Shown here in pieces: positions 2,586 to 59,235 of a stretch of 64,000 nt of DNA (positions within the stretch are counted from its first letter, which is position 1; the number at the start of each line of letters is the position of its first letter). The translations under genes were made by a program, and so were the position numbers. The notes under the pieces were generated by a model, which saw only the letters and a list, made by a program, of their open reading frames with translations, had not been told where the DNA came from and ran no database searches. Location: NCBI RefSeq assembly GCF_024700885.2, contig NZ_CP117016.1, one strand, 5' to 3'. The DNA comes from Escherichia coli (lineage in GTDB: Bacteria; Pseudomonadota; Gammaproteobacteria; Enterobacterales; Enterobacteriaceae).

Positions 2586-3749
2586 CACGGTTGTCAGGTC
2601 ACGTCCCATCTGTAAATCGACATTGCCGACGCAGGTGCAGACCTCTTTTTTGGTGCCCGCATGTCTTTCGGTGGCATAACCCACACACAGTCCGGCCAGG
2701 ACGGTATCGAAATATTTTTCTTCTGCATTCGCGGGTAAGTAGTCGGGATGAGCGACTAGATGGCGGAGGTAATGATAAAAAGCGTCCAGCTGTGCGGGTT
2801 GCTGAGCAAAATTCACATTGACTAACTCTTTCGCACTTTCACCAACCACCATTGCCGAGACGCGCATTCCCAGATCGCCTTCCACCGTCCGTTTCACGAA
2901 GGGTTCCGGTACGCCGTGTAAAACGGTGTCGGGCGAGAGCGTGTTGGCACAGGCGGAATAGACATCGGTGGTTGCGCCACCCATGTCGATCAGCATGAAC
3001 TCTTTCCAGCTGTGATCGACGTTACTGATTGCCTTAACCAGTTCAAAGACCGTCCATGGTGTCGGCATTGGTTCTTCGCCTGTTTTATCAACAATGACAT
3101 CCAACCCTTTCCCTTTAACGATGCGTTTAAGGAATATGTCGCAGATAGCCTGGCGTGCAGCTAAAGGGTTCGGATGGTCAAGATCGGGCAGAACGTTGTC
3201 GACGATGGTCAGGTCTTTATGCCCGAGGATCTCCTGCACCTCGTCCTGAATATCCCGGTTTCCGGCATAAATAATGGCGCAGTCGAGTTTGGATTCTGCC
3301 AACACACGGGCGTTATTCAGTCCGTAGCTTTCTTCTCCGCCATCGGTGCCGCCGGTGAACAAGAGAATATCGGGCTGCGTTTCTTCCAGTGCCTGGATAT
3401 CACGGCGGTTCAGCTTGTAGGCGTAATATTGCGCAATTTTAGCACCCGCAGAGTGAGCGGTTACTTTCGCGGTTTCCAGGGTGATAGAAGGCACCAATCC
3501 CATTGCGGCAACCGCCAGCCCACCTTTGGCAGAGGAGGAATACTTCAATGCAACCTCACCACTGTTTAACAGGGGGAGGGCATTATCTACGTTTAACACC
3601 TGGTCCAGGCTGGAGAAAAACCCCTTCGCCAGATGATGGGTGGTGGTTGGGGTCAGAACGTGGTTAACCAACGTTAACGCGTCCCCCTCCCGGGTGAAGA
3701 GGGCTGCTTTGGTCCACGTCGAACCAATATCGACAGAGACGATTTGCAT
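2578..3749 (-). pseudogene. glmL: glutamate mutase component L, N-terminal part truncated by IS26
   Basis: ORF 2559-3749 (396 aa) reads 19 nt into IS26 before stopping; start overlaps glmS stop. Confidence 0.65.
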
Positions 3750-4198
3750 CAGATTGCCTCTTCAAGAATGCGAGTATCAACGTCATGACGTTGGTTGATA
3801 TCGTGGGCCATCAGCTGACAAACATCTTCTAAGTCATGACTTGGGGAAAAGACGCGATCAAATCCCATCTCTTTGAACTTGGTTTCCACGTCAGCGAAGT
3901 CATGTTTTCCGACCACCAGGTTACCGCCCACATAGAGCAGGATGTTACCCAGCCCACGCTCGATGCAGCGTTCGCGCATGCCCAGACAATCGATATCGCC
4001 ATGCCCATAGATAGAGGAGACGACAATCGCGTCAGCACCAGTTTCAATGGCAGCATCAATATATTCGTCCTGGCTGACCATTACGCCCAGATTAATAACT
4101 CTGAAGTCATGGTTGCTAAAAACGCGGTCCAGAACTTTATTGCCTACTGCATGGCAGTCCGCGCCAATAACGCCAATCACAAGTGTTGCTTTCTTCAT
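3749..4198 (-). CDS. glmS: glutamate mutase S/sigma subunit, B12-binding
   Basis: Start at [19 protein letters not shown] with an AAGGAT ribosome-binding site upstream; cobalamin-binding-type N-terminus. Confidence 0.8.
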
Positions 4199-4745
4199 GG
4201 GTAATCCTTTGTAAGACAGAGAGTAAAATAAGTTACACACGTCGTATTTATGGCCGCTCATAACGGCACAGGTTTAATATCACAGGAGTGTCTTTATCTG
4301 ACCGTAATGTTGCAATTGATCTATTTTCAAAATGTCTTTCGGGAAATGATTGTTTAAAGTGTGTTTTCAAATTCTCATTTTAATTCAGTGTGTTATGTCA
4401 ACTAATGTCATGAATGTTAAATTTTTAAAATTAACTTGATTTGATGTATTGAGATAATTGTGATCAACTTCTAATTTGCATTTTTGTGACGTGGCTTTAG
4501 CCATGAGTAAATACATTTCATAAAAGTTAAGTCGAATTTCACTGCAATTCATCTCTGCTTAATGTAAAAATAATGTTGAAAATAACAAATAATTAATGAT
4601 TCATGCGAATTATGACCTTTGTTAGCTCTTTTGATTTTTCGTAAAAAAGAAAAGTACATGAAGGTGCTACCAGTACGAGTAACGTTAATCAAAAGTTTTA
4701 TTACGTCTGGCAATAACGCAGGCCATTTTTCGCGACAGGAGGGAT

Positions 4746-16094: not shown

Positions 16095-16170
16095 GGGTCG
16101 TTAGCTCAGTTGGTAGAGCAGTTGACTTTTAATCAATTGGTCGCAGGTTCGAATCCTGCACGACCCACCA
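16095..16170 (+). tRNA. lysT: tRNA-Lys (anticodon UUU)
   Basis: 76-nt cloverleaf GGGTCGTTAGCTCAGTTGGTAGAGC...ACGACCCACCA with CTTTTAA anticodon loop. Confidence 0.95.
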
Positions 16171-16198
16171 ATCGCTAAGGTGGACGCGGTAGTAAAAC

Positions 16199-16270
16199 GT
16201 GAAGGATAACGTTGCGTCAGCAACGGCCCGAAGGGCGAGACGAAGTCGAGTCATCCTGCACGACCCACCA
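16199..16270 (+). repeat. spacer repeat ending in a copy of the tRNA-Lys 3' terminus
   Basis: About 70 bp GTGAAGGATAACGTTGCGTCAGCAACGGCCCG...TCATCCTGCACGACCCACCA; second copy at 16694-16763. Confidence 0.7.
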
Positions 16271-16305
16271 CTAACCTAGTTAGTTGTAGTATCCAGCGTA
16301 GTATC

Positions 16306-16381
16306 GGGTGATTAGCTCAGCTGGGAGAGCACCTCCCTTACAAGGAGGGGGTCGGCGGTTCGATCCCGTCATCACCCACCA
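16306..16381 (+). tRNA. valT: tRNA-Val (anticodon UAC)
   Basis: 76-nt cloverleaf GGGTGATTAGCTCAGCTGGGAGAGC...CATCACCCACCA. Confidence 0.95.
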
Positions 16382-16383
16382 CC

Positions 16384-16459
16384 GGGTCGTTAGCTCAGTT
16401 GGTAGAGCAGTTGACTTTTAATCAATTGGTCGCAGGTTCGAATCCTGCACGACCCACCA
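16384..16459 (+). tRNA. lysW: tRNA-Lys (anticodon UUU)
   Basis: Identical to lysT. Confidence 0.95.
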
Positions 16460-16510
16460 CTAATTACGGTGGGTTCGGTGGAAGTAGTTTGTAGTATCCA
16501 GCGCAGTATC

Positions 16511-16586
16511 GGGTGATTAGCTCAGCTGGGAGAGCACCTCCCTTACAAGGAGGGGGTCGGCGGTTCGATCCCGTCATCACCCACCA
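16511..16586 (+). tRNA. valZ: tRNA-Val (anticodon UAC)
   Basis: Identical to valT. Confidence 0.95.
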
Positions 16587-16589
16587 CTC

Positions 16590-16665
16590 GGGTCGTTAGC
16601 TCAGTTGGTAGAGCAGTTGACTTTTAATCAATTGGTCGCAGGTTCGAATCCTGCACGACCCACCA
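16590..16665 (+). tRNA. lysY: tRNA-Lys (anticodon UUU)
   Basis: Identical to lysT. Confidence 0.95.
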
Positions 16666-16693
16666 ATTTTAACATCAAACTCAGATGTTAAGC

Positions 16694-16763
16694 GTGAAGG
16701 ATAACGTTGCGTCAGCAACGGCCCGTAGGGCGAGCGAAGCGAGTCATCCTGCACGACCCACCA
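16694..16763 (+). repeat. spacer repeat ending in a copy of the tRNA-Lys 3' terminus (second copy)
   Basis: Near-identical to 16199-16270. Confidence 0.7.
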
Positions 16764-16811
16764 ATTTTAAAGATTGGTTCCGAGTAGAAATCTTTCAGGT
16801 AACACCCGTAT

Positions 16812-16887
16812 GGGTCGTTAGCTCAGTTGGTAGAGCAGTTGACTTTTAATCAATTGGTCGCAGGTTCGAATCCTGCACGACCCACCA
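16812..16887 (+). tRNA. lysZ: tRNA-Lys (anticodon UUU)
   Basis: Identical to lysT. Confidence 0.95.
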
Positions 16888-16920
16888 TCCTGAATGATTA
16901 AAGCAGCATAATCCCGCAAG

Positions 16921-16996
16921 GGGTCGTTAGCTCAGTTGGTAGAGCAGTTGACTTTTAATCAATTGGTCGCAGGTTCGAATCCTGCACGACCCACCA
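16921..16996 (+). tRNA. lysQ: tRNA-Lys (anticodon UUU)
   Basis: Identical to lysT. Confidence 0.95.
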
Positions 16997-55828: not shown

Positions 55829-56001
55829 GACGACAGCGACGAAGTATCACCGACATAATCTGCGAAAACTGCAAATACCTTCCAACGAAACGCTCCAGAA
55901 ATAAACGCAAGCCAATCCCAAAAGAATCTGACGTAAAAACCTTCAATTACACAGCTCACCTGTGGGATATCCGGTGGCTAAGAAATCGTGCGAGGAAATG
56001 A
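55825..56001 (+). CDS. ninD: NinD-like small Cys-containing protein
   Basis: [36 protein letters not shown]...; ATGA overlap with ninB stop. Confidence 0.5.
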
Positions 56002-56381
56002 CAATGGATTATTCACAGTTAAGTGATTTTGAAATTAACAAGCGAGTGGCAATCGCAAATGGACTTTTGGTTCAGGGCATTGATGATAGTAAAGCCACTG
56101 GAATGACTAGCAAATATCACGAACTCCGGCCGCACACTGTTTGGGTGAGTGATGGTAAAAACCCATGGGTGCAATATGCACCAACTCTTTGCTGGGAGGA
56201 TGCTGGACCTGTCATCTTGAAGAATCGCATCAGTCTTGTTTGGGATTGCGCTGAAGATGGCAGTTCTGAATGGTGGAATTCTGTTGATCAGTTCGATTCT
56301 TGCCGAGTTCAGTACCAGTCTAATCCCCTCCGCGCCGCCATGATTGTATTTCTCATGATGCAGGACGCCAATAATGCTTAG
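55998..56381 (+). CDS. hypothetical nin-region protein (127 aa)
   Basis: ATGA overlap with upstream stop. Confidence 0.5.
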
Positions 56382-56559
56382 CCCATCCCAATCCCTTCAA
56401 TACCAGAAAGAAAGCGTCGAGCGGGCTTTAACGTGCGCTAACTGCGGTCAGAAGCTGCATGTGCTGGAAGTTCACGTGTGTGAGCGTTGTATATATGAAT
56501 GCTTAAATATGGTGGAACATAATGAGAAATATAAGCAACATAGACGAATTAAGAAATAA
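56374..56559 (+). pseudogene. ninF: ninF disrupted by insertion; chimeric 61-aa ORF keeps the CxxC...CxxC motif
   Basis: [37 protein letters not shown] then divergence at 56486; in-frame NinF-like C-terminus resumes at 57028-57089. Confidence 0.6.
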
Positions 56560-57027
56560 ATTATCATATGATGATGTTTTAGGTGTGCTTAGATGGAAAG
56601 TGTCTCCTTCTAATAATGTTAAGGTTGGCAGTGTTGCTGGTTACATTAGGAGTGATGGTTATAGGATGTTAACTATCGATGGTGTAATTACTTATGCTCA
56701 CCACGTTATATGGATGATAAATAATGGTGAGATTCCATTAGGGTATAAAATTGATCATATAAATGGAGTAAGGTCAGATAATAGGCTATCTAATCTTCGA
56801 TTGGTTACACACCAACAGAATGCACAGAACCAAAAGAGAAAAATAACCAATTCGTCAGGAGTGACTGGAGTATATTTCAATAAAGAGAGATGTAAGTGGA
56901 TTGCGAATATATGCGTAGATGGGCGCACCAAATATCTTGGAATATTTGCAAGCATCATTGACGCTATTGCAGAAAGGAAGAGGGCAGAAAAAGAACTGGG
57001 TTTTCATGAAAACCATGGCAGACCATA
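56486..57027 (+). mobile_element. 542-bp AT-rich insertion carrying an HNH homing endonuclease gene, inside ninF
   Basis: Deleting 56486-57027 restores a contiguous ninF frame (...VHVCEHCAELMSDPNSSMYEEEDDE); abrupt GC drop. Confidence 0.6.
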
Positions 57028-57028
57028 A
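56522..57028 (+). CDS. HNH homing endonuclease with AP2-like DNA-binding domain
   Basis: 168 aa; YKIDHINGVRSDNRLSNLRLVTHQQNAQN (HNH) followed by SGVTGVYFNKERCKWIANI (AP2-like). Confidence 0.75.
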   Translation: MRNISNIDELRNKLSYDDVLGVLRWKVSPSNNVKVGSVAGYIRSDGYRMLTIDGVITYAHHVIWMINNGEIPLGYKIDHINGVRSDNRLSNLRLVTHQQNAQNQKRKITNSSGVTGVYFNKERCKWIANICVDGRTKYLGIFASIIDAIAERKRAEKELGFHENHGRP

Positions 57029-57029
57029 C

Positions 57030-57089
57030 TGCGCAGAACTGATGAGCGATCCGAATAGCTCAATGTACGAGGAAGAAGACGATGAGTGA
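57030..57089 (+). pseudogene. ninF: ninF 3' remnant
   Basis: In-frame CAELMSDPNSSMYEEEDDE-stop immediately after the insertion. Confidence 0.5.
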
Positions 57090-57351
57090 TTTCTCTGAGC
57101 TTATTTCCTTCAAAAAAGACAGAGAAGAAATGCGGACTGAATCTGTCTATTACGTTCAACACCGGAATAAACGCTCTGTGCTTGATCAGGAGCTGGTTAT
57201 TACCGGAGACCTGGCATTCAGAACATATAAGGCCAGCATGGAAATGAAGGATTTCCCTAAATGTGGTTCTGAAAGAGAAGCCGCGTTAAAGCTGGCAGAG
57301 TGGATGCAGAGAATGGCTGCTGCAATTGAGAATTACTGGAGCGAACCATAA
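57082..57351 (+). CDS. hypothetical nin-region protein (89 aa)
   Basis: ORF; start lies 5 nt before ninF-remnant stop. Confidence 0.5.
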   Translation: MSDFSELISFKKDREEMRTESVYYVQHRNKRSVLDQELVITGDLAFRTYKASMEMKDFPKCGSEREAALKLAEWMQRMAAAIENYWSEP

Positions 57352-57641
57352 TGGCTAACCTACGCAAAGAAGCACGCGGCAGAGAATGCCAGGTACGTAT
57401 TTACGGCGTATGCAATGGCAATCCTGAAACTACAGTTCTGGCACATTACCGGATGGCTGGAATTTGCGGAACGGGAATGAAACCTGACGACCTGATCGGT
57501 GCATGGGCTTGTAGCGCGTGTCACGATGAAATCGACCGACGTACCCATAACCTCGACAACAAAGACGCCAGACTTTACCACCTCGAAGGCGTGATCAGGA
57601 CGCAGGCGATACTGCTGAGGGAGGGGAAGATTAAGCCATGA
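57351..57641 (+). CDS. YbcO-like (DUF1364) putative nuclease
   Basis: 96 aa; Cys/His pattern CQVRIYGVCNG...HYRMAGICGTGMKPDD...CSACHDEIDRRTH. Confidence 0.55.
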   Translation: MANLRKEARGRECQVRIYGVCNGNPETTVLAHYRMAGICGTGMKPDDLIGAWACSACHDEIDRRTHNLDNKDARLYHLEGVIRTQAILLREGKIKP

Positions 57642-59079: not shown

Positions 59080-59154
59080 GGGTCAGTCGTATAAAGGTCA
59101 TTACGGAAGGCTGTTAACCTTCTTATCGTGGTTCGAGTCCACGCTGTCCCGCCA
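59080..59154 (+). tRNA. phage-encoded tRNA, anticodon GUU (Asn-type), slightly non-canonical
   Basis: Manual fold: acceptor GGGTCAG/CTGTCCC (one mismatch), D-loop with GG, anticodon arm GAAGG-CTGTTAA-CCTTC, T-arm CGTGG-TTCGAGT-CCACG, discriminator G, CCA. Confidence 0.55.
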
Positions 59155-59159
59155 AATAT

Positions 59160-59235
59160 GCTGGTTTAGCTCCAATGGTAGAGCAGTCGCCTTGTAAACG
59201 AATGGGTAGCGGTTCAAGTCCGTTAACCAGCACCA
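59160..59235 (+). tRNA. phage-encoded tRNA, anticodon UGU (Thr-type), weak anticodon stem
   Basis: Manual fold: acceptor GCTGGTT/AACCAGC perfect, D-arm GCTC-CAATGGTA-GAGC, T-loop TTCAAGT, CCA; anticodon stem has two mismatches. Confidence 0.5.

Follow-up and report, generated by a model that had tools for sequence, protein, structure and literature searches.

Free-standing homing endonuclease genes (HEGs) split a coding sequence more rarely than they lie between genes, and to our knowledge the intron-less HEGs that do so amount to a handful of cases, all in virulent phages, among them mobE in nrdA, an arrangement termed 'genes in pieces' (Friedrich et al. 2007, reviewed in PMC2988022). In these arrangements mobE splits nrdA of Aeromonas phage Aeh1 and mobA splits the T4 topoisomerase gene 39/60 (PMC2988022), and a further HEG splits nrdD in FelixO1-like phages (PMC4837284). 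Free-standing genes that join an HNH or HNN nuclease domain to an AP2 domain are a known phage family, present in Xanthomonas phages Xp10, OP1 and Xop411 (PMC2248197), and Vibrio phage ICP1 carries HEGs designated 'IPA-HNH' (PMC10448857). In the P22-like phage epsilon34, gene 31 fuses an eaE-like N-terminus in frame to a putative HNH homing endonuclease (PMC2629481). Here, we analyze a stretch of 64,000 nucleotides of Escherichia coli DNA (the window), which holds a lambdoid prophage of E. coli MLI114 and is 100% identical to NZ_CP117013.1, and in which the small gene ninF is interrupted by an HNH endonuclease gene.

Altogether, this locus is best explained by a free-standing HNH(N)-AP2 homing endonuclease gene that splits the non-essential ninF between the codons for Cys38 and Cys39. 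We put the probability that the anatomy and the family of the element are as described here at about 0.97. We infer, rather than observe, that the enzyme is active, where it would recognize and cut DNA, when it is expressed and that it spreads by homing.

Anatomy of the interrupted ninF gene

The nin region of the prophage extends over ~55.3-58.8 kb of the window, and its gene order in RefSeq is ninB-ninE-ninX-ninF'-HNH-'ninF-hyp-DUF1364/ybcO-rusA-ninH-Q. The features of the ninF locus described below are on the + strand. Including the insert, ninF occupies 56374-57089, as judged from its open reading frames (ORFs) and from uninterrupted alleles. The earlier note on this DNA had correctly read ninF as normal up to ...VHVCE, then interrupted by AT-rich DNA and resumed in frame: the frame that opens at 56374 reads ...CANCGQKLHVLEVHVCERC, enters the AT-rich DNA and terminates at 56557-56559, and the ninF frame picks up again at 57030 as CAELMSDPNSSMYEEEDDE with its stop at 57089. 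The 5' part of ninF (56374-56489) comprises codons 1-38 and the first two bases of the Cys38 codon, while the 3' part (57029-57089), annotated in RefSeq as a partial NinF pseudogene, comprises the last base of the Cys38 codon, Cys39, the acidic tail AELMSDPNSSMYEEEDDE and the stop codon. Both parts are collinear with uninterrupted ninF alleles.

We defined the junction by anchored comparison, a MAFFT pairwise alignment having put the gap in the wrong place, using 114 uninterrupted (empty) and 44-47 interrupted (filled) alleles gathered from E. coli genomes, the phage collection, IMG/VR, metagenomes and assembly look-ups. Empty sites are thus abundant and locate the junction, contrary to the alternative, raised in the earlier note, that related phages would carry no empty site. 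The 114 empty alleles have a uniform length of 177 nt (58 codons and a stop), and the commonest reads GTG TGT GAG CAC TGC TGC GCA GAA at the site, where the window reads GTG TGT GAG CGT TG/T ATATATG...CCATAA/C TGC GCA GAA (slashes mark the ends of the insert). Comparison with these alleles puts the net insert at 539 bp, from 56490 to 57028 (or, shifted by 1 nt, from 56491 to 57029), with boundaries uncertain by 1 nt, or by at most 5 nt if the codon change described below is counted within the insert. Its right end is the endonuclease stop codon TAA, and all filled alleles have this one common junction. Excising the 539 bp yields a 177-nt ninF that encodes ...VHVCERCCAELM... and differs from the empty-allele consensus at 5/177 nt, including a two-base His37Arg change.

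The earlier note had given the insert as 542 bp (56486-57027), the removal of which was expected to restore ninF. That excision does restore the frame, but it leaves a 174-nt gene, encoding a 57-aa protein that lacks one of the two adjacent cysteines, and we reject 542 bp as the net insertion because a ninF of 174 nt occurs in 0/114 natural alleles. The same note had the insert supply an Arg-Cys pair, a reading less simple than one that ties the arginine alone to the insert. Along with the insertion, codon 37 has changed at two bases, from CAC to CGT (His to Arg), and CGT is present in 43/44 filled alleles (the remaining one has CAT) compared with 0/118 sampled empty alleles. Moreover, in 5,426 complete E. 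coli genomes all full-length perfect matches to the healed junction were interrupted sites, and no uninterrupted ninF with CGT was among them. Cys38, on the other hand, aligns with a codon of ninF, and the TGT found there in the window is present in 3/118 empty alleles; in the simplest reading of the alignment, this codon would be ninF's own and only CGT (His/Asp to Arg) would be tied to the insert.

Translation of the interrupted gene from its normal start gives a truncated ninF ORF of 61 aa (56374-56559; present in the ORF list and annotated in RefSeq as 'protein NinF', WP_032192604.1), which consists of 38 native residues (with His37Arg) and a 23-aa insert-encoded tail, IYECLNMVEHNEKYKQHRRIKK, and overlaps the start of the endonuclease gene by 38 nt. 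As anticipated, this product keeps its CxxC...CxxC motif: both pairs (C21/C24 and C35/C38), and with them all four cysteines, are in the 5' part, and the zinc ribbon is retained because the insertion point is immediately 3' of the last ligand codon, whereas Cys39 and the acidic tail are lost. Residues 1-44 of ninF match PHROG 672 (E=2.8e-24; profile length 58), and PF05810 (Pfam NinF) is recorded on truncated ninF products with a match over residues 1-44. NCBIfam holds no family for either the ninF product or the endonuclease.

The C-terminal piece of ninF might be translated separately. A putative restart ORF (57006-57089), seen in translation and annotated by gene callers in some genomes as 24- or 27-aa products, could begin at either of two in-frame ATGs at the end of the insert, at 57006 and 57015, to give (MKT)MADHN followed by CAELMSDPNSSMYEEEDDE, i.e. 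27 or 24 aa. It has no convincing Shine-Dalgarno sequence and may have arisen by chance. One possibility is that the split NinF works as two peptides, the zinc ribbon and a separately restarted acidic tail. The gene that follows, encoding a hypothetical protein of 89 aa (57069-57351, ATG at 57082; WP_001279421.1), has its own GAGGA Shine-Dalgarno sequence at 57069-57073, within the ninF 3' part. Therefore, its expression need not rely on translation of ninF, and translational polarity of the insertion is unlikely.

The endonuclease and the element that carries it

The insert encodes a protein of 168 aa (56522-57028), identical to RefSeq WP_001244575.1, which is annotated as 'HNH endonuclease signature motif containing protein' and is listed between the 61-aa NinF and the partial NinF pseudogene. 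Pfam, PHROG and the predicted fold all support the earlier note's assignment of this protein as an endonuclease of HNH/AP2 type. The protein matches HNH_3 (PF13392; Pfam E=1.9e-19) over residues ~58-102, with a motif of the H-N-N type including D78/H79, and PHROG 99 'HNH endonuclease' (E=3.4e-70). When the protein is aligned with 56 homologues, D78, N91 and N103 never vary, and H79, N87 and N100 each show at least 90% conservation. An AlphaFold model computed from the homologue alignment has a mean pLDDT of 90.2, and its top Foldseek match in the PDB is the homing endonuclease I-HmuI (1u3e; E=3.8e-4, prob 1.00, 167 aligned columns). A sequence comparison with the PDB likewise ranks I-HmuI first, with the DH..N..N motifs aligned, so that fold and sequence agree on a homing endonuclease as the closest known structure. 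The global TM-score to 1u3e is only 0.46 (rmsd 12.7), which we attribute to a differing arrangement of the domains in the model.

For the C-terminal region, the Pfam AP2 match is weak and below threshold (E=0.083), and a precomputed PF00847 (AP2) match exists for 17/98 homologues. In the model this domain consists of strands 117-120, 125-132 and 135-142 and a helix, 145-159, and residues ~113-160 match the AP2 domains of the plant AP2/ERF proteins AtERF1 and TEM1 (prob 1.00, rmsd 3.4 A). The predicted architecture is of the HNH(N)-AP2 type, as in free-standing phage endonucleases. The closest phage relatives share only ~50% aa identity and come from virulent Drexlerviridae of Klebsiella and E. 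coli, in which they are encoded by HNH genes in intergenic positions, and in the protein database only a single intermediate (P0002, at 85%) lies between 99% and ~53% identity.

As delimited by comparison with the 114 empty alleles, composition and a repeat search, the element (56490-57028) has a GC content of 35%, compared with 49% and 50% in the 2-kb flanks. The endonuclease ORF, in a frame different from that of ninF, occupies 507/539 nt and leaves 32 nt of non-coding DNA on its 5' side and 0-1 nt on its 3' side. By direct reading, a Shine-Dalgarno-like GGTGGA (56510-56515) lies within the insert, 6 nt 5' of the endonuclease ATG. A search for promoter-like sites on the + strand of the insert found none, and expression of the endonuclease presumably depends on the pR/nin transcript. 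In a tblastn search of the window there was no second copy of the endonuclease, and the copy in ninF is the only one of this prophage. The junction itself creates a terminator-like site, in which the hairpin GTTCAC-GTGT-GTGAGC (56470-56485) is followed by the T-rich start of the insert; terminator-like sites number 5 in 3 kb compared with 2.3 expected, and the junction hairpin is probably due to chance. Elsewhere in the window, genes for tRNA-Asn and tRNA-Thr are located just 3' of the prophage Q gene (59080-59235), as in many Stx-type or lambdoid prophages, and a host array of seven tRNA-Lys/Val genes is located at 16095-16996.

Distribution, mobility and competing explanations

The two halves of ninF are contiguous in 225 matching phage records, 0/225 of which cover at least 80% of the interrupted query, and the interrupted form is present in 33/1,694 ninF-matching complete E. 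coli genomes (~2%), with ninF contiguous in roughly 1,660. Thus, the interruption is not a chance pattern. At a frequency of 2%, about 2-4 insert-bearing phage records would be expected, and the 0/225 observed only weakly suggests under-representation among isolated phages. The exact endonuclease protein is indexed in 3,440 assembly blocks, and 10/10 places inspected are within ninF; IMG/VR contributed 28 interrupted contigs. A peptide-pattern scan of 100,044 representative genomes (one per species) found no relative, and a degenerate junction pattern had no match in the representative genomes and only 4 matches, all E. coli-type copies, in metagenomes.

Clustering of the 1-kb flanks, at thresholds of our own choosing, placed the filled alleles in 27 distinct combinations of upstream and downstream flanks, 15 of which are shared with empty alleles. 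Some filled and empty alleles are collinear for >1 kb on both sides; for instance, L010 and L054 differ by 20 mismatches in 1,150 nt and by 9 in 1,550 nt. This makes the element a presence/absence polymorphism, confined to one exact position in genomes that are homologous elsewhere. Divergence of the flanks begins at the borders of ninF and in some backgrounds within its first 35 nt, and ninF alone, as arms of 116-117 nt and 60-61 nt, is shared across contexts. Because nothing else is common to these contexts, a recognition site and the homology for repair must lie within ninF. Arms of this length suffice for phage recombinases of the Red/RecT/Erf type, as is known from recombineering. In a comparison of filled and empty alleles, in which the samples are not independent and p-values serve only as description, absolute linkage with the insert is limited to the 7-nt patch 56481-56487, a polymorphism at +10 nt is present in 0/47 filled and 12/114 empty alleles, and ninF markers from ~35 nt outward vary in both groups, some of them at different frequencies. 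The linkage of the patch and the lowered diversity at +10 nt are the sole, indirect hints of endonuclease-dependent inheritance with co-conversion of neighboring markers. In one prophage with an interrupted ninF (L019), a minus-strand gene at 3741-4523, just 3' of ninF, has an IstB_IS21 and a weak Bac_DnaA Pfam match and may represent a further mobile-element insertion of the IS21 type in the nin region.

The element has diverged little within E. coli, and its ORF is, to judge from the pattern of substitutions, under purifying selection. Nucleotide diversity in the insert is pi = 0.005, with 20 haplotypes among 44 copies. The variable sites of the endonuclease ORF comprise 15 synonymous and 14 non-synonymous ones (dN/dS ~0.25), every variant found in more than 3 copies is synonymous, and 31/43 full-length copies encode an identical protein. 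Two copies are damaged, one by a frameshift and one (L007) by H79Y in the catalytic dyad; such scattered decayed copies fit the HEG life cycle. In several genomes, including that of enteropathogenic E. coli (EPEC) E2348/69, RefSeq/PGAP labels the endonuclease an incomplete pseudogene despite an uninterrupted 168-codon ORF there, and an overlapping 50-aa 'NinF' ORF is called instead (L014 1759-1908, which is E2348/69; L011 1793-1942; L007 1703-1996; L012 1649-1894). To judge from the sequences, these labels look like an annotation artefact, and only the H79Y copy looks truly inactivated. A diverged lineage is represented by a sister element (80% identical in nt and 85% in aa) at positions 1-600 of L167 (Logan SRR25288770, a 909-nt contig). 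Its left junction is the same, reading ...ATT CAT GTT TGT GAG AAA TGT/ATATATG in a diverged ninF that encodes IHVCEKC. At its right junction 27 nt are missing, and the endonuclease ORF (176 aa) reads through the diverged ninF tail, which in the ninF frame encodes DPNGQMLEKDDG, and abuts ybcO. A sister element at the same left junction indicates that the association with ninF is older than ~20% sequence divergence.

Based on these comparisons of filled and empty alleles, we propose active homing with a target in ninF, to which we assign a probability of roughly 0.75. In our model, the endonuclease gene, lacking a promoter of its own, would be read as part of the delayed-early pR/nin transcript, with translation starting from its own Shine-Dalgarno sequence, so that the enzyme would appear upon prophage induction or phage infection. 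The AP2-fold domain would recognize the GC-rich and highly conserved segment encoding the second CxxCC of an uninterrupted ninF in a co-resident or co-infecting lambdoid genome, and the HNH domain would nick or cut nearby. Recombinational repair templated by the interrupted allele through the two ninF arms, carried out by recombinases of the type named above, would then give the recipient the 539-bp element along with a few neighboring bases (the CGT codon). Carrier alleles would escape cleavage, since the insertion breaks up the site. The cost should be low, given that ninF is non-essential, that the truncated product keeps its four zinc ligands and that the downstream gene has its own ribosome-binding site. 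In agreement with a low cost, ninF and indeed the entire nin region are dispensable for plaque formation by lambda (PMC10695390).

Several points weigh against this model. Our literature search found no report on this protein or on an insertion in ninF. Free-standing HEGs often cut far from their own gene, and we only assume that the recognition site is at the insertion point. The boundary itself is ambiguous, in that the event can be written either as 539 bp plus two substitutions or as a 542-bp insert that would bring GTTG together with a 3-bp deletion. At a frequency of ~2% and with 0/225 phage records, the element is rarer than an aggressive homing element might be expected to be. Lastly, lambdoid phages recombine freely at conserved 'linker' genes such as ninF, the variety of contexts of the filled alleles mirrors that of the empty alleles, and a passive insert could have reached its many backgrounds by ordinary recombination alone.

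This last point leads to the main rival, in which the insert is a passive passenger. It would have arrived a single time, through illegitimate recombination or one homing-like event, would by now be inactive at this site or cut elsewhere, and would have been spread by ordinary lambdoid recombination at ninF. In its favor, ninF is nearly nucleotide-invariant across lambdoid phages and lies between highly mosaic modules, the empty alleles are equally diverse in context, the insert is rare and absent from the matching phage records, and some copies are damaged. A passenger, however, could acquire a new pair of flanks only by crossing over inside arms as short as 116 nt and 61 nt, and such transfers number at least 27 over a period in which the insert accumulated just 0.5% divergence. 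Moreover, the purifying selection described above, with its synonymous common variants and its predominant identical protein, is unexpected for a dead passenger, and the association with ninF persists in the 20%-diverged lineage with the ORF still open. We therefore consider a passive spread unlikely, though it is the alternative to homing that survives best.

The sequence in which ninF alleles differ most is the junction-linked patch (56481-56487), which comprises the third base of the Cys35 codon and codons 36-37, reads T GAG CGT in filled alleles and lies 3-9 nt from the insertion point. In the 114 uninterrupted alleles (e.g., L001 1661-1667) the patch has at least 7 haplotypes (GAGCAC, TCCGAT, TCAGAT, GAGTAC, GCCGAT, GAAGCG and GATCAC), while the remaining gene is almost nucleotide-invariant. 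The two major uninterrupted alleles encode ...C-E-H-C-C... and ...C-S-D-C-C..., and over 177 nt their consensus sequences differ at six positions within nt 108-114 and at one in the last codon. The patch could be merely two unconstrained residues between zinc ligands. It is tempting to speculate that ninF and the HEG are instead engaged in a live arms race in which patch haplotypes are cleavage-resistant escape alleles that the element has selected and GAG-CAC (lambda-type) is the sensitive target. We regard this idea as doubtful; if true, it would turn ninF into a natural and tractable setting in which the homing of a HEG in temperate phages could be measured along with its decay and the resistance to it.

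The endonuclease might also be a domesticated weapon, retained for its benefit to the carrier prophage and acting mainly in competition between phages rather than as a purely selfish gene. Lambdoid phages without the insert, whether superinfecting or co-resident, would then be cut in their ninF region and suffer partial or marker exclusion. Such a role is compatible with homing, and T4 HEGs are known to cause marker exclusion (PMC2988022). Purifying selection on the ORF would fit it, as would escape variants in the patch beside the insertion point and the crowding of related prophage nin regions with paralogous HNH genes. However, no promoter active in a lysogen was found, which implies that the enzyme would not be made in the repressed state, and the low frequency of the insert argues against a strong benefit. 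For these reasons, a role as a weapon seems to us quite unlikely, and somewhat less probable than a passive spread.

The paralogues just mentioned are an observation in their own right. Nin regions of related E. coli prophages contain free-standing HNH_3 genes, some with AP2 or NUMOD4, whose products are 27-41% identical to the ninF endonuclease (L013 197-808; L022 1768-2253; L021 2081-2683; L006 1670-2179; L011 2209-2775; L008 2751-3275, also in L020 and at L021 4053-4577). They occupy at least 5 other positions, all intergenic, including 5' of ninB, between ninB and ninE, directly after ninF and between ybcO and rusA, and the nin region thus looks like a landing zone for HNH genes.

A self-splicing group I or II intron, or an intein, with a homing endonuclease inside it and an intact NinF still produced, is hardly credible. 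The coding sequence is interrupted precisely at a conserved motif, as is typical of intron and intein sites. Yet Rfam cmscan over 56000-57500 (E<=10) found no group I/II intron or other match in the insert and only a chance tfoR match outside it, the RNA fold of 56470-57050 is not unusually stable (z=-1.26), and the non-coding DNA on either side of the ORF is limited to the few nucleotides given above. Also, the insert ends in ...CATAA(C), without the terminal G of group I introns, and starts with TATATATG (or ATATATG), without the GUGYG of group II introns. An intein is excluded by the stop in the ninF frame at 56557-56559 together with the different frame of the endonuclease ORF. With its own translation start and its position outside any intron or intein, this ORF is a free-standing gene, as the earlier note had concluded.

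Similarly, we give next to no weight to the idea that split ninF is ancestral and the 177-nt gene derived by precise deletion, because, even though the diverged lineage (L167) is likewise interrupted, ~98% of alleles are uninterrupted, including those of lambda-type and P22-type phages, the insert is compositionally foreign (35% compared with 49% GC), its relatives are mobile free-standing HNH genes in unrelated virulent phages, and the NinF family profile (length 58) crosses the junction as a single domain. A transposon or insertion sequence was considered and rejected, as the insert has neither terminal inverted repeats nor a target-site duplication and its sole ORF is the HNH endonuclease; an 8-nt repeat, TAACTGCG, at 56439 and 57026 is at chance level.

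Comparison with known systems

With the ninF element, gene-splitting HEGs extend to temperate lambdoid prophages of E. coli, a setting in which there has been little work on homing. Many sequenced copies are available for study, with ~3,400 assembly blocks containing the exact protein compared with roughly 1,700 ninF-bearing complete genomes, and the target is short and well defined. Lambda genetics is directly usable here because lambda-type ninF alleles carry the putatively sensitive sequence. In addition, the insert explains the 'partial NinF' pseudogenes and the orphan HNH gene annotated in strains such as EPEC E2348/69.

The arrangement resembles most closely those of mobE, mobA and the nrdD HEG. 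In all of them, a free-standing ORF of the HNH family with its own translation signals lies inside a coding sequence, at the segment that encodes critical conserved residues, and, in place of an intron or intein, two separate host ORF fragments result. The ninF element shares with them its departure from the intergenic location of free-standing HEGs in general, being within the ninF coding sequence. Unlike these cases, which are from virulent T4-like or FelixO1-like phages, the ninF element resides in a temperate lambdoid prophage and splits a tiny gene of 58 codons, and its nuclease has a DNA-binding domain of AP2 fold. Moreover, ninF is dispensable, and therefore nothing requires its fragments to reassemble.

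With I-HmuI of Bacillus phage SPO1 (PDB 1u3e), an intron-encoded HNH nicking enzyme, the ninF nuclease shares an H-N-N motif without zinc-binding cysteines and a similar size (168 aa compared with 174 aa for I-HmuI). Their identity is only 22%, however, and I-HmuI is encoded within a group I intron and ends in a helix-turn-helix domain, whereas the ninF nuclease is intron-less and ends in the AP2-fold domain.

By domain architecture the closest counterparts are the HEGs of Xp10, OP1 and Xop411 and those of ICP1, which likewise have an N-terminal HNH(N) and a C-terminal AP2 domain with the conserved boxes DNR, NLR and xN, occur as several paralogues per genome region, show signs of gain and decay and have sites at the boundaries of genetic exchange. 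These genes are described as intergenic, while the ninF one interrupts a coding sequence in temperate E. coli prophages and has a very well sampled filled/empty polymorphism. Gene 31 of epsilon34 provides the closest counterpart by host, as it also places an HNH homing endonuclease gene inside an accessory early gene of a lambdoid/P22-like temperate phage. That gene is an in-frame fusion in the early-left operon, and its endonuclease is related to those of Gram-positive phages; the ninF endonuclease ORF, by contrast, is out of frame, has its own ribosome-binding site and is in the nin region. Thus, the ninF element is not a new kind of system but a clear, if ordinary, example of a known mobile gene.

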